Shown one piece after another: positions 3,308 to 63,524 of a stretch of DNA of 64,000 nucleotides. The stretch's first letter is position 1. The number at the start of each line of letters is the position of its first letter. Below the pieces are notes generated by a model, which had not been told where the DNA came from, did no database searches, and saw nothing but the letters and a program-made list of their open reading frames with translations. Both the position numbers and the translations under genes were made by a program. Origin of the DNA: an uncultured Gammaproteobacteria bacterium (GTDB taxonomy: Bacteria; Patescibacteriota; Patescibacteriia; Magasanikbacterales; UBA922); assembly GCA_964447765.1 (NCBI GenBank), contig CAYUTO010000003.1, forward strand, positions 8,919 through 72,918, in the 5' to 3' direction.

Positions 3308-4885
3308 TTATACCAAACTTCTTCCCGTCATTTCTTTTGGCTGTTCAATACCAAGAATTGAGAGTACGGTGGGAGCAACATCAGCCAAGATTCCAACGGG
3401 GTGCATGAGACTCAAATCTCCTTCTGGAGGGTCTCCGGTAGGCCCCGCCCTACCCTGGAATTCATTACCAATAATCAGAAATGGCACTGGATTATTACTA
3501 TGCTCTTTGTCCTGTTCGCCTGTTTTCAAATTAATAACTTCTTCGGCATTTCCATGATCTGCAGTAATCAAAAGCACCCCACCTTTTGCTTCGACATATT
3601 CGGCGATTTTTCCTAAATTTTTATCAATGGTTTCGCATCCTTTGATAGTAGCATCTACATTCCCCGTATGCCCCACCATATCAGCATTTGCAAAGTTCGC
3701 CAAAATCACATCATATTTATCAGACTCAATCGCTTGAATTATTTTTTTGGTTACTTCTGCCGCAGACATTTCTGGTGCTTTATCATATGAAGAAACATTA
3801 GGAGAAGGGACAATCGCCCGATCCTCACCAACAAACGGCTCTTCCACCGTACCATTCAAGAAAAAAGTGATATGCGCGTATTTTTCGGTTTCTGCAACAT
3901 GAAATTGAGTAAGCCCCTGCTTGCTTATCACTTCAGCAAGACAATTGTGCACCACAATTGGTGGATATGCTACTACGACTGGAATTTCTTTTTCATATTC
4001 AGTCAGAGTGACAAACAATAAATCGGTGAGATATTCACGTTTGAATTTATCAAATCCAGGCAAGACAAAAGCTTTCGTTAATTGTCGTGCTCGATCAGGT
4101 CGAAAATTGAAAAAAATTACCGCATCACCTTTTGCAACTCGTGCCGTAGGCTTTCCTTCTTTTCCAATCACCGTTGGTATAAATTCTTCATCAAATACTT
4201 GCTTCTCATACGAAGCCTCGATTGCATCAAGCGGATGTTTGCTGTAGGTCTCTGAAATTCCTTCGACCATGGCACGATATGCACGCTCAATACGATCCCA
4301 TCGGTTGTCACGGTCCATTGCATAATAGCGACCAGACAACGACGCAATTTCTCCCACTCCAATTTTTTTCATTTTTTCTTCGAGTTTAGCAACAAAATCT
4401 TTTGCACTATTATAAATAGTATCTCTCCCGTCGAGAATCACATGTACAAACACATTCTTAATTTTATTTTTCTTTGCAAATTCAAGGAGGGAGTACAGGT
4501 GATCCTGACTTGCATGCACGTTTCCCGGACTCACCAACCCAATCAAATGCAGTGATGATTTATGAGTCGCCACGTGCTCTTTTGCCGATAAGAATGCTTT
4601 ATTTTGAAAAAAACTACCGTCCACAATAGTCTTATTAATGCGAGGAAATGTCTGATAATACACGCGTCCCGCTCCGATATTCAAATGTCCTACTTCTGAA
4701 TTTCCCATTTCTCCATAGGAAAGTCCCACTTCATTTCCAGAAGCATAGAGTGACATTGCAGGATATTCTCGTATAAAACGATCCATATTGGGAGTCTCTG
4801 CGCGTTCAATCGCATTACCCTCACTTGCAGGTGCTACTCCCCACCCATCGAGAACGGCAAGTACTACTGGTTTTGGTCGAGCCAT
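3308..4885 (-). CDS. gpmI: 2,3-bisphosphoglycerate-independent phosphoglycerate mutase (iPGM), copy 1
   Basis: 525 aa; VLDGWG near the N-terminus, GNSEVGHLNIGAGR (catalytic Ser region), ITADHGNAEE metal-binding motif. Confidence 0.9.
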   Translation of the reverse strand: MARPKPVVLAVLDGWGVAPASEGNAIERAETPNMDRFIREYPAMSLYASGNEVGLSYGEMGNSEVGHLNIGAGRVYYQTFPRINKTIVDGSFFQNKAFLSAKEHVATHKSSLHLIGLVSPGNVHASQDHLYSLLEFAKKNKIKNVFVHVILDGRDTIYNSAKDFVAKLEEKMKKIGVGEIASLSGRYYAMDRDNRWDRIERAYRAMVEGISETYSKHPLDAIEASYEKQVFDEEFIPTVIGKEGKPTARVAKGDAVIFFNFRPDRARQLTKAFVLPGFDKFKREYLTDLLFVTLTEYEKEIPVVVAYPPIVVHNCLAEVISKQGLTQFHVAETEKYAHITFFLNGTVEEPFVGEDRAIVPSPNVSSYDKAPEMSAAEVTKKIIQAIESDKYDVILANFANADMVGHTGNVDATIKGCETIDKNLGKIAEYVEAKGGVLLITADHGNAEEVINLKTGEQDKEHSNNPVPFLIIGNEFQGRAGPTGDPPEGDLSLMHPVGILADVAPTVLSILGIEQPKEMTGRSLV

Positions 4886-44345: not shown

Positions 44346-45626
44346 ATGCAACAAGTAACCATTGAAAAACTAATATTCGGAGGACAAGGATTCGCTCGCG
44401 TAGATGGTGTTGTGTATTTTATTTGGAATGCACTTCCTGGCGAGACCGTTGAAATTGAAATATTAAAAAAGAAAAAGGAATATATCGAAGCAGTGGCGAC
44501 GAAAATCATTAACCCCTCACCATTTCGAGTAGAACCAAAAGACGAACACTTCCTTTCGACTAGTCCTTGGCAAATCATGAGTTATGAAAAGGAAAATGAA
44601 TGGAAAAAAGAGATTGCGATTGAAGTATACAAGCGTATTGGAAAAGAGGCGTTTGCCGATGTCTCCCCAGAGCTTGTGTTTGATCCAGAAAAATATTACA
44701 GCTACCGAAACAAGATGGAATTTAGTTTTGCTGTCGATAAAACAGGACGAACATGCCTCGGGTTTTTTGAACGAGGAAAAAGAGATAAATTTGCTGTAGA
44801 AAAATCAGAGTTAGCGGACAACGCGATCAATGAAACATCAGCTGCTATTCTCGCGTGGGTACGGAAACATCAGATTCCGATGCGAAGTCTCAAGAGTCTG
44901 ATGGTACGGAGTGATGGAAAGGGAAAAACAATTGCCGCATTATTTATCAAAGACCGATTGGAATTTCCAGATTACCCAGAGTTGAATGACCAAATGATTG
45001 GATTCCAATTGTATTATTCTACACACAAATCTCCTGCTTCAGTTCCGACCGACATACTCTATACCAAAGGACAGGATTATATTATTGTCACACTTCGAAA
45101 TATTGAATTCAAAGTTGGACTACTTAGTTTTTTCCAAGTACATTTACCTGTTTTTGAAAAAGCGCTCGATGACATCTACGAATATATTCCAAAAAAATCC
45201 AATCTTCTTGATCTCTATTCTGGAGTCGGATCCATTGGATTACCCGTGCACAAACGCGCAAAAGAATTAACGCTCGTCGATAATAATACTGAGGCAATTC
45301 AGTATGCGACAGAGAATATTGAATTGAACAAAGTAAAAAATGCGACAGCGATCTGTAAACCAACTGAAGATATTATTTCGCTTATTACCTCTGACGCGAT
45401 TGTGATTCTCGATCCACCACGTATCGGACTCCATCATCGAGTAGTTGAGCGAATACTAGAGACCAAACCAAAGACTATTATTTATTTGTCATGCGATCTC
45501 TCGACTCAGGCACGTGATATTTTCCTTCTTCATCCTACGTATAAAATATCATTTTCTCGCCTCTACAATTTCTTCCCAAGAACGCCGCATATTGAAGGGT
45601 TGTGTGTATTGAATTTGATTAAATAG
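44346..45626 (+). CDS. TRAM-domain class-I SAM-dependent RNA (uracil-5)-methyltransferase (RlmD/TrmA family)
   Basis: 426 aa; N-terminal TRAM-like beta domain; C-terminal MTase with DLYSGVGSIG (motif I) and DPPR (motif IV). Confidence 0.75.
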   Translation: MQQVTIEKLIFGGQGFARVDGVVYFIWNALPGETVEIEILKKKKEYIEAVATKIINPSPFRVEPKDEHFLSTSPWQIMSYEKENEWKKEIAIEVYKRIGKEAFADVSPELVFDPEKYYSYRNKMEFSFAVDKTGRTCLGFFERGKRDKFAVEKSELADNAINETSAAILAWVRKHQIPMRSLKSLMVRSDGKGKTIAALFIKDRLEFPDYPELNDQMIGFQLYYSTHKSPASVPTDILYTKGQDYIIVTLRNIEFKVGLLSFFQVHLPVFEKALDDIYEYIPKKSNLLDLYSGVGSIGLPVHKRAKELTLVDNNTEAIQYATENIELNKVKNATAICKPTEDIISLITSDAIVILDPPRIGLHHRVVERILETKPKTIIYLSCDLSTQARDIFLLHPTYKISFSRLYNFFPRTPHIEGLCVLNLIK

Positions 45627-45628
45627 TA

Positions 45629-46432
45629 CCTATAAATGACGAAGCCGACGCGAGGGAACTCCCAAGCGTCGGCATGATTGTGGTCTATTGCGCCAACAGT
45701 GCCGAATTGCACCATCGTAGCACAAGATCGTTGAATTATCTCAGTACTCGTACCGTCCAAGACTAAGGAACCATGTGTTTTGATGCAGCTCACCTTCACA
45801 GACACCCACCTGGAAGGTTCGAACAGCTCCAGTGGTGAGTGGATCTCCTGGATGAGGACATCCTGGATGCATGAAGCCGAAGATGTTGCGGATATTTCCA
45901 CTCATGACGGTCACGTCCAGGCTATCGATCCACCGGAATTCCTGAAGCTCAGCATCCGTATAGAACTCGAGGAGCGCAGCCAGATGGTTGAACCCAGCGT
46001 GCCGCAGACCGAGCCGATTCCGAATGAACAACGCTTCTTCGAGAGTAGCTTTACGACCGAGCCTGAACAGCACCACCTTCTCCTTGATCGACTCGTAATC
46101 CCTCCCTTTGGTGTGCACGAGGAAATCATTGAGCTTGTTGACCGGCAGATTCAGATCGCAGTAGCCGCACTTGCTTGCAACAAGCCATTCCTCAGCAGTC
46201 CGCTTCGGGTAGATAGTGACTTCGAACGTGCGCTCCTCGACGTCCCTCAGGCACTGCAGCAGACTTTCCACCTCTTCTGGATTCTCGATCCACTTCTGTG
46301 CGATGGTTGCCGACAGGTCAGTCGGCAATTTCCTCACGAGCGTGGCCGAAAGCTCCTGAAGCTGAGCTCTGCTCGCGAATTTTCTTTTTCTCATTCATTC
46401 TCTCCTTGGCTACCTTTTGGTGCAATTTCTTG
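45629..46432 (-). mobile_element. GC-rich (~55%) inserted cassette bounded by inverted AATTGCACC / GGTGCAATT termini
   Basis: Abrupt GC shift. Plus strand reads CAGTGCCGAATTGCACC at 45697..45713 and GGTGCAATTT at 46419..46428. A 3' hairpin GCCGACGC..GCGTCGGC at 45644..45673 is followed on the minus strand by TTCGTCATTTATAGG. Confidence 0.45.
45741..46394 (-). CDS. Hypothetical protein (217 aa) of the GC-rich cassette; apparent fusion of the alphaCTD-protein N-module and domain X
   Basis: Strong SD AAGGAGAG upstream; the protein is plausibly folded, whereas the mirror plus-strand ORF is not; by-eye similarity to the products of 62223..62657 (N-terminus) and 62874..63413 (the remainder). Confidence 0.6.
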   Translation of the reverse strand: MRKRKFASRAQLQELSATLVRKLPTDLSATIAQKWIENPEEVESLLQCLRDVEERTFEVTIYPKRTAEEWLVASKCGYCDLNLPVNKLNDFLVHTKGRDYESIKEKVVLFRLGRKATLEEALFIRNRLGLRHAGFNHLAALLEFYTDAELQEFRWIDSLDVTVMSGNIRNIFGFMHPGCPHPGDPLTTGAVRTFQVGVCEGELHQNTWFLSLGRYEY

Positions 46433-46589
46433 ACCGCAGGCTGACCATAGAATCGCGACGGGTAAGGCACTTCCTCACCTTCTTTCTAACTTATTAGAAA
46501 ATAATTCAAAAAGAAAGCCAGGAAATCCAAATCGACAATAGGCTAAAATACCATACCGTGCCACTTTTGTCAATCATCGCTTATCCAAA

Positions 46590-46624
46590 ACAAAAAACCA
46601 TGCTTCATCAGCACGGTTTTTTGT
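46590..46624 (+). terminator. Orphan hairpin plus T-run between the GC cassette and the antiporter gene
   Basis: AACCATGC-ttcatca-GCACGGTTTTTTG with one mismatch in the stem. Confidence 0.3.
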
Positions 46625-46693
46625 TTTAGTCGCTATCTTGTAAAAAATCAATTTTATCTCTATACTAGTGCAATATTCTAATACATACACAGT

Positions 46694-47653
46694 ATGATTC
46701 TCTCTATTTTTCTCGTACTTGTCGGCCTTGGTATTCTCATCGTTGGTGGTGAATCACTTGTTCGAGGAGCATCGTCTATCGCCAAACGTCTGAAAGTTGC
46801 ACCTATTGTCATCGGACTCACGATTGTTGCCTTTGGAACTTCCGCGCCTGAGCTTGCAGTAAATCTATTCTCCGCGTTCGAAGGCTCCGTCGATATTGCA
46901 GTCGGAAATGTAATTGGAAGTAACATTGCAAACATTCTTCTGATCCTTGGAATTTGCGCGCTTATCCGCACGATTCGTGTACAAAAAAACACGACATGGA
47001 AAGAAATACCTCTCGCACTTCTTGCAGTCTTGTTGGTATTTATCATGGCAAATGATCGACTTTTTGATGGGGCTAGTGCAAATGTACTTACACGCACAGA
47101 CGGCCTCGCACTCATGGGTATTTTTGCCATTTTTATGTATTACACGTTTGGTATAGCAAAAGTAAGTGGAGAAGCAGACAAAGATGAAGTGAAACTATAC
47201 TCAACACTTATTTCAGTCCTTCTCATTATTGGTGGACTTATTGGCCTCGTATTTGGTGGAAAATTATTGGTCGACAACGCAATTGTACTCGCGCAATTGG
47301 CTGGAATGTCTGAGGCACTCATCGGTCTTACCATCGTCGCCGTCGGTACCTCGCTTCCCGAGCTTGTCACATCTATTATTGCCGTACGCCATGGACATGA
47401 TGATCTGGCAGTTGGAAACATTGTAGGATCGAATATTTTCAATATTCTCTGGATTCTTGGACTTACCTCTACCATTCTTCCACTTCCAATATCTGACGCA
47501 GTCCAGACTGACATTCTCGTAAATGTGGGCGTCACCTTACTACTTTTCCTCTTCATGTTTGTTGGTGCACGCCACAAGCTCAATCGCTGGCAGGGAGTGA
47601 TGTTTGTGCTTTTGTATGTCGGATATGTGGGGTATTTGGTGATGCGAGGGTAA
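46694..47653 (+). CDS. CaCA-family Na+/Ca2+ (cation/Ca2+) antiporter, YrbG-like
   Basis: 319 aa; two alpha-repeats carrying GTSAPE and GTSLPE. Confidence 0.85.
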   Translation: MILSIFLVLVGLGILIVGGESLVRGASSIAKRLKVAPIVIGLTIVAFGTSAPELAVNLFSAFEGSVDIAVGNVIGSNIANILLILGICALIRTIRVQKNTTWKEIPLALLAVLLVFIMANDRLFDGASANVLTRTDGLALMGIFAIFMYYTFGIAKVSGEADKDEVKLYSTLISVLLIIGGLIGLVFGGKLLVDNAIVLAQLAGMSEALIGLTIVAVGTSLPELVTSIIAVRHGHDDLAVGNIVGSNIFNILWILGLTSTILPLPISDAVQTDILVNVGVTLLLFLFMFVGARHKLNRWQGVMFVLLYVGYVGYLVMRG

Positions 47654-47671
47654 TCAATTTATTTTTTCAAA

Positions 47672-47708
47672 CAAAAAACCAGGCAGTAAAGCTTGGTTTT
47701 TTGTTTTT
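47672..47708 (+). terminator. Intrinsic terminator
   Basis: AACCAGGC-agtaaa-GCTTGGTTTTTTGTTTTT. Confidence 0.6.
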
Positions 47709-47717
47709 AAACAGATT

Positions 47718-47735
47718 AAAAGTCGAAATCGACTT
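47718..47735. promoter_or_regulatory. Palindromic operator-like site AAAAGTCGAAATCGACTT upstream of the TrmB-family regulator gene
   Basis: Perfect 7-bp inverted repeat AAGTCGA/TCGACTT with a 2-nt centre; the same AAAGTCGAAA half-site recurs at 58209..58220 and 58263..58274. Confidence 0.4.
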
Positions 47736-47899
47736 CTAATCTACCCCTCCTCATTTCTAATATTACTAAAATTGAATTATTCTGTCAACAAAATAAGTCA
47801 ATTTTATTAGCTAAATTTAGCCTAAATTTTATATTTTGTGTTATATTTTAGACACAATTACTTATTTTTGCTAAAATATGAATAATTAATAAAATTAAT

Positions 47900-48685
47900 A
47901 TGGAAAAATATTTCCACAACATTCTTAAGGAACTCGGTCTTAACGAGCAAGAAGCGCAAGTGTATGGGAGTCTTTTGGAGCTAGGACAATCTGTTGTTTC
48001 CCCTATTGCTGCTTTAGCCAAAGTTAACCGTACAAGCTGTTACAACATTTTAGAATCGCTTGTTCAAAAAAAGATGGTGAGCAAAGCTCGATTTCGAGGT
48101 AAACTAGCTTACAGCGTTGACAACCCCACGCAAATTATCACCAATCTAGAAGAAGAAAAAAAACAACTTGAAGCTACACTGGAGAAGGCAAAAGCTCTTC
48201 AGCCTGAACTTACTCGTAGGTATACACAAAGATACACCAAACCAATTATTAAATATGTTGAGGGTATCGAAGGTATAAAAGAATTATATGAAGACAGTTT
48301 ACGATGTGTCAATAAAATTGAAGGACTGCGTGCCTACTCATCACCCCAGGATGTGCGCGATGAATTAGACGACTATGTAGATTGGTATTTTGATCAACGT
48401 ACTGCTCGAAGTATCCCGATTCGTACTATAGTTCCTGACAAGGAACATGGCAAACAATTAAAGAGGGATGCTCATAAATTTATGCGTACCGTACGGTTAA
48501 TCCCTAAAGAAAAATTTGATTTTTCGCCTGAAATCTATTTGTATGATAATAAATTTACCGTCATGTCTTTCAAAGAAAAATTTGGTTTTCTTATTGAGAG
48601 TAAAGAAATTGTAGATGCCCTGAAAACCGCTTGGGATTTGGCATGGGAGAGGGCCGAAGAATATGATAAAAATATTAAGATTTAA
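47900..48685 (+). CDS. TrmB-family transcriptional regulator
   Basis: 261 aa; N-terminal TrmB-type winged HTH (LGLNEQEAQVYGSLLELGQSVVSPIAALAKVNRTSCYNILESLVQKKMV). Confidence 0.7.
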   Translation: MEKYFHNILKELGLNEQEAQVYGSLLELGQSVVSPIAALAKVNRTSCYNILESLVQKKMVSKARFRGKLAYSVDNPTQIITNLEEEKKQLEATLEKAKALQPELTRRYTQRYTKPIIKYVEGIEGIKELYEDSLRCVNKIEGLRAYSSPQDVRDELDDYVDWYFDQRTARSIPIRTIVPDKEHGKQLKRDAHKFMRTVRLIPKEKFDFSPEIYLYDNKFTVMSFKEKFGFLIESKEIVDALKTAWDLAWERAEEYDKNIKI

Positions 48686-62097: not shown

Positions 62098-62112
62098 ATT
62101 ACACAAGTAAAT

Positions 62113-62147
62113 TAAAAACACCTCTCCGATTCGGAGAGGTGTTTTTA
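62113..62147 (+). terminator. Intrinsic terminator of gyrA
   Basis: ACACCTCTCCGA-t-TCGGAGAGGTGTTTTT. Confidence 0.75.
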
Positions 62148-62158
62148 GTATTGAGGGA

Positions 62159-62187
62159 TTGACAAAAGCAGACTTCTATGGTAAAAA
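62159..62187 (+). promoter_or_regulatory. Sigma70-like promoter ATTGACAAAA-17-TAAAAA of GC cassette gene 1
   Basis: TTGACA at 62159..62164; SD AAGGAGG at 62209..62215. Confidence 0.4.
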
Positions 62188-62222
62188 CCTTAGCTGCCCA
62201 AACAAACAAAGGAGGTAGTAGC

Positions 62223-62657
62223 ATGGACGCTGAACAATACCAGAAACTCGCGCTCGCGGTGATGGCTGCAATCCCAATGGATCTCGACAGCCAGATCGCC
62301 GATGGGTGGATCCGAGACCCGCTCGGCCTAACCGTCGCGATGCGCCAGGCACTGGCCCCAGGAAAACAGGATCAGGAGTGGAAGCCCCATCTCTTCGAGA
62401 AACTCGATAGACGTATCGTCGACCTCCCTGGACTCACTGGCCGTGCTCGTAATTCACTTCTCGGTGAAAATAGAGACAAAGAACATCGTATCACCTACGT
62501 CGGACAGTTGGTACAAATGCGTAAAGTGAAACTCTCCTGTCTGTGGAATTTTGGAAATCACTCTCTCAAAAACGTGACCCAAGTCCTAGCTGAACTCGGA
62601 CTGGAGCTCGATATGGACGTACAAGGCTGGGTACCGCCTGAGCAGCGGAACCTGTAG
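62223..62657 (+). CDS. Standalone RNA polymerase alpha-subunit C-terminal-domain (alphaCTD)-like protein, GC-rich
   Basis: ATG with a canonical SD; residues ~65-144 align with the E. coli alphaCTD (DLPGLTGRARNSLL.. vs DLELTVRSANCLK; YVGQLVQ vs YIGDLVQ; NFGNHSL vs NLGKKSL; VLAELGLEL vs VLASRGLSL; QGWVPPE vs ENWPPA); the N-terminal ~60 aa are a separate module. Confidence 0.7.
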   Translation: MDAEQYQKLALAVMAAIPMDLDSQIADGWIRDPLGLTVAMRQALAPGKQDQEWKPHLFEKLDRRIVDLPGLTGRARNSLLGENRDKEHRITYVGQLVQMRKVKLSCLWNFGNHSLKNVTQVLAELGLELDMDVQGWVPPEQRNL

Positions 62658-62689
62658 AGTCGATTCCTCGGATCGACTCTCAAAATACG

Positions 62690-62750
62690 GACTCTCGCGC
62701 TACGGCGGTGCAATTCGGCACTGACAGCACGAGAGTCTTCTTCATTTTTA
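62690..62750 (+). repeat. Conserved cassette 3' element: hairpin GACTCTCG..CGAGAGTC containing GGTGCAATTCGGCACTG, then TTCTTCATTTTTA
   Basis: The 17-mer is identical to the rc of 45697..45713; the hairpin plus TTCTTCATTTTTA is repeated at 63422..63472. Confidence 0.6.
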
Positions 62751-62795
62751 GATAATCTAAAACCACTCGATAAGGGTGGTTTTTTATTTTAATGA

Positions 62796-62823
62796 TTGAC
62801 AAAAAATATATATGAGTTAGTAT
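62796..62823 (+). promoter_or_regulatory. Sigma70-like promoter ATTGACAAAA-16/17-TAGTAT of GC cassette gene 2
   Basis: TTGACA at 62796..62801 (the track ORF's TTG start lies inside it). Confidence 0.4.
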
Positions 62824-62873
62824 TCTCTCCAATACAGTCAACGCATAGTGCTATGACTGAACAGAGAGGTAAC

Positions 62874-63413
62874 ATGCACGTTCAAGTTAATCTAAGCCAG
62901 CTCACTCCACACAAAATCGAGCTGCGCGATGACCAGGTCAGGATCCACCCAAATCTCTCCGTCGAGGAGTGGTCCAAGTACGCGAACCTTTACATGACCC
63001 ACTGCAACGACGACTTCACGAACGAAAGGTTCACCAAATACCTTCGTGAACCTTCGAGTACTGAGGTCGTGAGAACCATCCGCCGCTTCCGTGCGGGGAG
63101 AGGTACTGGGTACACGGTCGAGTGGGCCCGGTCTGTGCGTGAAGCTCTCAACCTCGACCCTACTGGGTTCGAGCACATAGCAGCCTTCGCCAACCAGCAC
63201 TTCAGAATCTGGTGGAATCTCGCGCGCGAGTGGGTCTTCTCCCCGGATCTGATCTCGATGGAAATCCCCAACTCGCTCGACAAAAACAAGCCCACAATGA
63301 TCGGCATCGGGGGCAACATCGAAGCACGCCACTTTTCCGTTACACCCCTCGAGAAGTTCAATGGGTATGTGTGGTTCTGCGGTCTCGTGAAGGCCGAACC
63401 CACCACGTCCTAG
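62874..63413 (+). CDS. Hypothetical GC-rich protein (domain X), paralog of the C-terminal part of 45741..46394
   Basis: ATG at 62874 with SD GAGAGG (alternative ATG at 62853); shared blocks RIHPNLSVEEW / TIYPKRTAEEW and LNLDPTGFEHIAAF / LGLRHAGFNHLAAL. Confidence 0.55.
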   Translation: MHVQVNLSQLTPHKIELRDDQVRIHPNLSVEEWSKYANLYMTHCNDDFTNERFTKYLREPSSTEVVRTIRRFRAGRGTGYTVEWARSVREALNLDPTGFEHIAAFANQHFRIWWNLAREWVFSPDLISMEIPNSLDKNKPTMIGIGGNIEARHFSVTPLEKFNGYVWFCGLVKAEPTTS

Positions 63414-63421
63414 GGCGCAAC

Positions 63422-63472
63422 AAGACTCTCTGCACGACACTAAGTACGGCACGAGAGTCTTCTTCATTTTTA
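63422..63472 (+). repeat. Second copy of the cassette 3' element (AAGACTCTC..CGGCAC..GAGAGTCTT CTTCATTTTTA)
   Basis: Direct comparison with 62690..62750. Confidence 0.55.
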
Positions 63473-63481
63473 AACTAAAAA

Positions 63482-63512
63482 AATAATCCTCCAGTTCGGA
63501 GGATTATTTTAA
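63482..63512. terminator. Bidirectional intrinsic terminator (ruvA / cassette)
   Basis: AATAATCCTCC-agttc-GGAGGATTATTTT. Confidence 0.7.
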
Positions 63513-63524
63513 TGTACGAAATAA

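Follow-up and report, generated by a model that had tools for sequence, protein, structure and literature searches.

A GC-rich single-gene cassette of a Candidatus Magasanikbacteria genome as a probable detached member of a variable-protein family of diversity-generating retroelements

The DNA analysed here (the window, 64 kb in length) comes from a member of Candidatus Magasanikbacteria, within the candidate phyla radiation (CPR)/Patescibacteria, and carries a GC-rich island between an RNA methyltransferase gene and a CaCA antiporter gene. The island belongs to a small cassette with a single gene, and this cassette is probably a gene for a variable protein of the type targeted by diversity-generating retroelements (DGRs), which has become detached from its retroelement and stands as a self-contained unit among housekeeping genes. 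DGR variable proteins are already known; what is new is a detached gene of this type together with an unusual partner and a candidate leader RNA. The targets of DGRs in CPR bacteria are numerous, and their functions are almost all unknown. The small family to which the gene belongs has members at bona fide DGR loci as well as copies that stand alone among housekeeping genes, and it offers a concrete case of hypervariable receptor genes becoming fixed or exchanged between species.

DGR-linked relatives and the protein family

The gene, and the segment that corresponds to the variable region (VR) of its DGR-linked relatives, are located as follows.

45741..46394, minus strand: open reading frame (ORF) of 217 aa; N-module at residues ~1-50 (46245-46394), domain X at residues ~52-217 with a predicted C-type-lectin-like fold
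45753..45914, minus strand: VR-equivalent, residues ~161-214, ending in a conserved WFLSL motif; mapped from the VR of locus L019 by pairwise alignment

The link to DGRs comes from two relatives of this gene. The first, L019, was found by scanning metagenome contigs with the motif of the 5' leader described below, and its organism is related to that of the window (FtsK ~78% identical and syntenic). In L019, three elements lie downstream of a family gene that encodes 209 aa: a second, 133-nt copy of the stretch coding for its C terminus, a bAvd gene (PF22296, E 1e-11), and a reverse transcriptase (RT) gene (RVT_1, E 2e-23). The VR of the gene and the downstream copy, the template repeat (TR), differ at 20 of the 133 nt, and 13 of these differences lie at the 24 adenines of the TR. 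The same layout is found in L006 (protein P0011), where the TR is 128 nt long (80% identity), bAvd is 66% identical, and the first part of an RT gene is present. The last ~130 nt of the gene form the VR in such DGR-linked relatives, and the invariant 3' end common to VR and TR encodes the conserved C-terminal WF(L/F)GL motif. In these relatives, the TR is reverse-transcribed by the RT/bAvd pair with adenine-specific errors and copied into the gene. Because the L019 and L006 genes adjoin an adenine-mismatched TR, bAvd, and RT, the family as a whole is one of DGR variable proteins, which are hypervariable ligand-binding receptors. For nearly every family member, BLASTP ranks the L019 protein first, and this protein is 36% identical to the window protein over the full length (220 aa, E 6e-40). 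Among DGRs, clade 2 occurs in Patescibacteria/CPR only (Roux et al. 2021, PMC8144416). The window shares with these cellular DGRs the host phylum and a non-viral context, but it holds target-type genes only.

A stretch of ~800 nt between the VR gene and the RT gene, mostly non-coding, is ~69% identical in these two distant loci (L019 2834-3612, L006 985-1798). It includes a VR-TR interval of ~350 nt and the sequence ...TCTTCATTCTC...GGGAGTTTG directly past the TR, has no Rfam match, and may be a DGR RNA scaffold or spacer.

The earlier note on this DNA, made from the sequence alone, had described the 217-aa protein as a fusion paralog that joins the N-module of one protein of the window to domain X of another. 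Alignment bears out both likenesses. For domain X, BLASTP of the 217-aa protein against 62796..63413, the frame that contains ORF 62874..63413 and its 179-aa product, gives E 9e-7 with 31% identity over 129 aa. MAFFT aligns the two X proteins through to the C-terminal WF..L motif, and a profile of these two sequences recovers a coherent family. In a word-indexed protein search, the 179-aa protein had no match and the 217-aa protein matched just its ortholog; the family was revealed only by exhaustive HMMER, which gave 17 representatives at E<1e-3 among 1.84 billion (1.84e9) searched. One of these, P0014 (2054 aa), suggested a link to NACHT/STAND sensors and was later rejected as spurious; it is a leucine-rich-repeat protein whose repeats (...TGFQHL...) mimic the GFEHL motif, a false positive of the two-sequence profile. 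The family alignment holds 17 sequences, namely 15 representatives and the two window proteins. An N-module followed by domain X is present in 13 of the 17 aligned proteins, mostly of ~200-230 aa, and the other four, including the 179-aa protein of the window, consist of domain X only. The fusion reading was therefore backwards. N-module plus X is the standard architecture of the family, and X-only proteins and the combination of N-module and alpha-CTD are derived or rarer forms.

Family members share 24-36% identity across about 17 clusters, without similarity at the DNA level. This pattern bears on the idea that the island chiefly encodes a structured non-coding RNA and that its ORF arose as a side effect of high GC, to which we give almost no credence. 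It could draw on the strongly conserved and structured untranslated elements and on the 217-aa ORFs present on both strands. However, protein-level homology over so many clusters, a confident AlphaFold2 (AF2) model, a start codon behind a strong Shine-Dalgarno (SD) sequence, and the lack of an Rfam match all argue for a protein-coding gene. All homologs align in the minus-strand frame, and the equally long plus-strand ORF is the by-product of high GC.

The 217-aa and 179-aa proteins have no match in Pfam, PHROGs, NCBIfam, or PADLOC, nor in a sequence-profile search of the PDB, and Foldseek gave nothing significant against the PDB. In the AF2 model, the VR-bearing domain X is predicted to adopt a C-type-lectin-like fold and, on this prediction, counts among proteins of that class. 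C-type-lectin targets of DGRs, such as Mtd of Bordetella phage BPP-1, TvpA of Treponema denticola, and archaeal and CPR proteins, likewise carry the VR at the C terminus of a lectin-like domain, and the L019 and L006 homologs adjoin the same kind of retroelement as these known targets. The window family differs from them by its small size, its lack of a Pfam match, and its distinct N-terminal three-helix module, the N-module. FGE-sulfatase and DUF1566 are the Pfam models typical of DGR targets, and both were absent from the library scans of the window proteins. The family proteins are small (~210 aa) and apparently cytoplasmic; because no signal peptide or membrane segment is visible, the product of the window gene would be a cytoplasmic binding protein.

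In the window, this gene stands apart from any retroelement. A tblastn search with the L019 RT and bAvd found nothing in the 64 kb. As for a TR, the segments 45600-46600 and 62100-63520 are not repeated elsewhere in the window, save for a 31-nt match of untranslated regions (UTRs). No DGR lies within 6-20 kb of the window copy and of several other members, and L005, L020, and L023 stand alone among housekeeping genes such as rpsP, rplU, and recR. No other block of the family alignment varies as much as the VR-equivalent, and it differs between the window and its ortholog L001 at just two positions, both synonymous (45798, 45888), with ~12% difference in the flanks. Its protein sequence is thus the same in a second species, identical proteins recur in independent samples, and the L002-type protein (P0004, 208 aa) is identical in three such samples, so that hypervariability confined to the VR is not seen in these comparisons. 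Because RT, bAvd, and TR are missing from the 64 kb and the protein sequence of the VR-equivalent is unchanged between two species, we are inclined to regard the window copy as a stand-alone gene that does not currently diversify. It would then work as a binding protein of fixed specificity, as an orphan or at most as the target of a remote DGR.

The inserted cassette

Comparison with sister species delimits a unit that extends beyond the ORF, with the following parts.

45628..46585, minus strand: whole inserted cassette, 958 bp, with promoter, leader, ORF, 3' hairpin, and terminator; from sister-species alignments
46545..46575, minus strand: cassette promoter; GATTGACAAAA (-35 module), 17-nt spacer, TATTTT
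46392..46486, minus strand: structured 5' leader, ~95 nt; P1 hairpin, long interrupted stem, and variable apical hairpin (RNAalifold)
46419..46427, plus strand: upstream copy of the 9-mer GGTGCAATT, read on the minus strand as AAUUGCACC; loop end and 3' strand of the leader apical hairpin GGUCA-agaaau-UGcACC
45694..45717, minus strand: 3'-UTR hairpin G-GUGC-AAUUCG-GCAC-UG, with a 17-mer as its tip (RNAfold)
45634..45673, minus strand: terminator-like hairpin at the cassette 3' end; GCCGACGC...GCGUCGGC, then UUCGUCAUUU

The GC-rich island and its single minus-strand ORF were correctly recognised from the sequence. GC content is 0.50-0.54 in 45600-46400 and ~0.40 in the flanks. GC at third codon positions (GC3) is 0.63 in the ORF, as compared with 0.34-0.39 in the methyltransferase, antiporter, and gyrA genes. 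The ORF is preceded by AAGGAGAG, a strong SD sequence.

The suggestion that sister genomes might show an empty site proved right. Species-representative genomes were scanned with the methyltransferase protein, which placed the organism in Candidatus Magasanikbacteria and yielded nine close sister-species loci (L007-L015), of which L007-L014 extend beyond the gene. In all eight of these, similarity to the window ends at 45607-45627. It restarts at 46586-46588 in L008, L010, L012, and L014, at 46616 in L011, at 47661-47668 in L009 and L013, and at 48725 in L007. Four sister species have an intact empty site, in which the methyltransferase stop codon is followed by 10-60 nt, the same bidirectional terminator, and then the antiporter promoter. 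The cassette lies between the methyltransferase stop codon (45624-45626) and this bidirectional terminator of the methyltransferase gene (46587-46627). Since the eight sister species lack the segment, 45628-46585 is the inserted unit; among the loci compared, L001 alone carries the same cassette at the site.

The site itself has received other genes. At L010 6504-7019, the same methyltransferase-antiporter interval holds a different insertion, a gene for a predicted membrane protein of 171 aa on the opposite strand. Because of this different small gene, the intergenic position appears to be a recurrent landing site for small single-gene units. In comparisons over window 46694-48685, the CaCA antiporter gene is absent from L007, L009, and L013, and a 261-aa gene (47900..48685) is also absent from L007 and is retained in L009 and L013. 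The whole region behind the methyltransferase gene is a hot spot of variation in gene content.

The cassette has its own expression signals. A promoter scan finds TTGACA, a spacer of 17 nt, and TATTTT at 46573-46545, with 10 of 12 matches and a TG extension. The 64 kb contain just three exact copies of the 11-mer GATTGACAAAA, at 46565-46575 (minus), 62157-62167 (plus), and 62794-62804 (plus), and each of the three GC-rich cassette genes has one of them upstream as its -35 module; L002 has the same module, and the similarity of the cassette promoter region to 62157-62183 spans 27 nt. As GATTGACAAAA stands ahead of all three GC-rich genes, these cassettes therefore share the promoter as well as 3' elements. 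At the other end, RNAfold of 45625-45745 (minus) gives z = -3.25. With these signals, the cassette reads as a self-contained transcription unit with a strong promoter of the sigma-70 type.

The earlier note had taken two inverted copies of GGTGCAATT as the termini of a mobile cassette. A discrete insertion is indeed present; a small element delimited by terminal inverted repeats (TIRs) of this sequence and moving as a unit is very improbable, and we reject it. The 9-mers occur at 45705-45713 (minus) and 46419-46427 (plus), in the inverted orientation claimed, yet they do not bound the island, as the real junctions, at 45628 and 46585, are 85 and 158 nt farther out. Each is part of a separate hairpin that explains it, one copy being the tip of the 3'-UTR hairpin together with the 17-mer and the other a part of the leader. 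L001, the closest ortholog, carries a substitution in the 9-mer (G->A at 45709), and the homologous leaders in L002 and L005 have no copy of it. At the apical-hairpin position, L002, L005, L019, and L021 have different yet pairing sequences, with covariation at columns 126/141 and 127/140. The window holds four copies of GGTGCAATT against 0.75 expected, and four were reached in 1 of 100 shuffles; a count so weakly above chance makes the 9-mer pair by itself weak evidence, and the 17-mer has just two copies in 64 kb. Presence or absence of the unit, the different gene at the same site in L010, and a cassette order at the gyrA site that differs between the window and L002 would suit an element that moves. 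However, no target-site duplication, terminal repeat, or recombinase is found where filled and empty sites are compared at the two junctions, and library scans show that the single ORF of the unit is not a transposase and that the unit has no integrase. With insertion sequences (IS), miniature inverted-repeat transposable elements (MITEs), and integron cassettes, the unit shares the presence or absence of ~1 kb in an intergenic site. It differs from them in having no junction TIR, target-site duplication, transposase or integrase, or attC-like core, and in having its own promoter. For the scanning of genomes, the lesson is that inverted copies of a short motif beside a GC island can be the content of UTR hairpins and not transposon ends. 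Long-range pairing of the two 9-mers between the 5' and 3' UTRs (9 bp) was also considered and dropped, as it is not conserved in L002.

Untranslated elements and the standing of the window copy

The 5' leader is conserved in six independent loci, namely window/L001, L002/L003, L005, L018/L019, L021, and, more weakly, L006, the proteins of which are just ~30-45% identical. Its positions in other loci are as follows.

L002 727-826; L005 1390-1493; L019 4352-4449 (minus); L021 132-224; L006 104-187: 5' leader

The predicted fold pairs 89.6% of cells, against 30-60% when the partners are slid. Compensatory changes are seen in eight pairs, and the covariation score was reached by none of 500 shuffles. 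A covariance model, R1, scores 88 bits on the window leader and, in 246 kb, matches only upstream of family genes; the leader is found only ahead of genes with N-module and X. With Rfam 15, the sole match of the window at gathering score is a tRNA, and the leader and the 3' hairpin are without a match. At E<=10, Rfam gives nothing credible in 45600-46620 or L019 2850-4650. We regard the leader as a candidate for a new cis-regulatory RNA that is absent from Rfam. In the RNAalifold structure, CY.UGGU..GCCU pairs with AGG.U.GCCA.GG in a stem that overlaps the 5' part of the SD site, and the leader may gate translation through this pairing.

The 17-mer GGTGCAATTCGGCACTG had been reported as an identical copy in another cassette. 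It is exact at 45697-45713 (minus) and 62707-62723 (plus), two matches occurred in 0 of 100 shuffles, and the similarity widens to 31 nt at 87%. A search for further copies, as the earlier note had proposed, confined the motif GYGYAATTCGGCRC to the 3' ends of cassette ORFs (two in the window, one in L001, two in L002, and two in L003), and it was not found in the other 20 loci. The stem covaries, from GUGC/GCAC to GCGC/GCGC behind the X gene of L002 and with a U.G pair in L001, and the loop AAUUCG (AATTCG) is invariant across copies. In three of four copies, the hairpin belongs to a terminator. It is a cassette-specific 3'-UTR element that would act at the RNA or DNA level, and it is neither a genome-wide motif nor a transposon end.

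The role of this hairpin may be no more than termination or stabilisation of the mRNA; alternatively, the hairpin may be a homing signal of the BPP-1 type. The latter would suit an active DGR elsewhere in the genome that diversifies 45753-45914 in trans and uses the 17-mer hairpin as the recognition hairpin or cruciform for retrohoming, a scenario that we consider unlikely. The BPP-1 DGR requires a hairpin just 3' of the VR, and this hairpin depends on the structure of its stem and on the sequence of its loop (Guo et al. 2011, PMC3240598). Like that target-site hairpin, the window hairpin lies 3' of a VR-bearing ORF and has a covarying stem and an invariant loop. The true targets L019 and L006 also have hairpins, 6-18 nt from the stop codon, the family is DGR-targeted in relatives, and the restriction of clade 2 to Patescibacteria/CPR fits as well. 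However, the window hairpin begins ~24 nt past the stop codon, farther from the ORF end than the close spacing needed in BPP-1, and three of the four copies of the hairpin are part of a terminator. It also stands behind alpha-CTD genes, where there is no lectin-type VR, and does not occur behind the X-only gene. The two X genes of the window have no DNA similarity at the level of the VR, and one TR cannot serve both. The absence of RT, Avd, and TR from the 64 kb, and a VR-equivalent protein that is identical in two species-level lineages and independent samples, also speak against a remote DGR.

Several points weigh against a detached DGR-type gene with the elements described above. The window covers only 64 kb, and a DGR elsewhere in the genome could still target the gene. 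The family members L004, L020, L022, and L023 have no leader. The roles of the N-module, leader, and 3' hairpin are ones that we infer, and the mechanism of cassette insertion is not explained. Likewise, the high GC and GC3 of the gene have no explanation, and they recur in the DGR-linked L019 copy beside an AT-rich RT.

In L019, the target gene (3725-4354) has a GC3 of 0.84 and the RT gene (1741-2901) of 0.31; target gene, leader, and TR are very GC-rich, and RT and bAvd are AT-rich like the host. The family genes of L021 and L022 are not GC-rich. Depletion of adenines on the coding strand, considered as a cause of high GC, was not seen in the AT skew.

Another account holds that the gene is foreign, recently taken up from a GC-richer donor, and that it has passed from species to species through homologous recombination in the flanking genes, DGR ancestry being irrelevant to its present role. 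We take it as possible and lean against it. The GC3 of the gene stands out from that of host genes, and the site is empty in eight sister species. In addition, 45585-46520 is 98.6% identical to L001, with ~85-90% identity in both flanks and in the promoter region of the cassette. This difference in identity suggests that homologous recombination recently replaced the allele, and that the right-hand breakpoint lies within the cassette. On the other hand, a foreign gene is compatible with the family assignment and is not an alternative to it. No GC-rich donor genome with the family was found, and all contexts are CPR-like housekeeping neighbourhoods. Viral or phage relatives were not found either: the leader pattern has no match in viral contigs, tblastn gave no match in phage genomes, IMG/VR holds no relatives, and BFVD has no structural match.

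Partner cassettes at the gyrA locus

Two further GC-rich cassettes lie 16 kb away, at the gyrA locus.

62157..62750, plus strand: partner cassette 1; ORF 62223..62657, 144 aa, N-module and C-terminal domain of the RNA polymerase alpha subunit (alpha-CTD); same promoter module
62794..63475, plus strand: partner cassette 2; ORF 62874..63413, 179 aa, domain X without N-module; same promoter module

The product of 62223..62657 matches Pfam PF03118 with 29.9 bits (cut-off 23.8), rpoA models of NCBIfam, and the RpoA CTD in the PDB (E 2e-8). Its residues ~51-140 correspond to the RpoA CTD, and by reading, the arginine and asparagine of LTxRxxN and the GxxSL hairpin are kept. Unlike RpoA, it has no alpha N-terminal assembly domain and bears instead the ~45-aa N-module of the lectin-type family. 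The likeness of this N-module to that of the 217-aa protein, noticed by eye in the earlier note, is confirmed by BLASTP (E 2e-5) and hhalign (93.7% probability, E 1.9e-7, 38 columns).

The earlier note read these shared modules as domain shuffling among functionally linked partners. The sharing holds, and X-type and alpha-CTD genes are adjacent in two genomes, in the window and in L002/L003; only the fusion part of that reading fails. Through the N-module, the 217-aa and alpha-CTD proteins most likely bind one another or a partner that both share, and such docking would tie ligand binding to RNA polymerase or promoter DNA. Small adaptor ('effector-associated') domains, attributed to work of Kaur and co-workers from 2020, reportedly link sensor and effector proteins in prokaryotic conflict systems. 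The window proteins would resemble them in having a short N-terminal helical module on ligand-binding and on DNA- or RNA polymerase-binding proteins encoded side by side, with a hypothetical interaction; they differ in having no NTPase core.

A fuller scheme can be drawn, in which the N-module is a homotypic adaptor between an intracellular lectin-fold receptor that a DGR can diversify and a free-standing alpha-CTD, and in which the cassettes share a promoter, an SD-occluding leader, and a 3' hairpin that doubles as a DGR homing signal. Taken in all its parts, this scheme is decidedly unlikely. If true, a hypervariable ligand sensor would be wired straight to transcription in a CPR bacterium, with genes that travel as GC-rich plug-in cassettes. 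The N-module on the alpha-CTD paralog in any case suggests a testable output pathway for DGR receptors.

The alpha-CTD gene itself is variable within conserved surroundings. Its coding sequence in the window (62223-62657) is 65% identical to that in L002 (1665-2102), with 76% in the N-module part and 61% in the CTD part. In the same comparison, the promoter and 5' UTR of the gene are 96% identical, the 3' hairpin 94%, and gyrA 92%. This suggests fast diversifying evolution of the alpha-CTD gene, or swapping of payloads within a conserved expression scaffold. The order of cassettes at the gyrA locus also differs, being N-module/X followed by N-module/alpha-CTD in L002 and N-module/alpha-CTD followed by X-only in the window. 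Such changes in content and order might be brought about by the promoter and terminator modules, which are repeated among the cassettes.

Behind the alpha-CTD genes, the 17-mer caps a ~20-bp hairpin that, with the UCUUCUUCAUUUUU coming after it, resembles a strong intrinsic terminator. In partner cassette 1, this hairpin spans 62689-62738, with the 17-mer (62707-62723) at its tip, and folds with z = -5.9. The 3' hairpin of partner cassette 2 has the same outer stem and T-tract and a different tip. A direct repeat of 27 nt (62724-62750 and 63446-63472, 96% identical), ACRGCACGAGAGTCTTCTTCATTTTTA, corresponds to the 3' strand and T-tract of both terminator hairpins at the gyrA locus, and each is followed by a second, AT-rich terminator of the host style.

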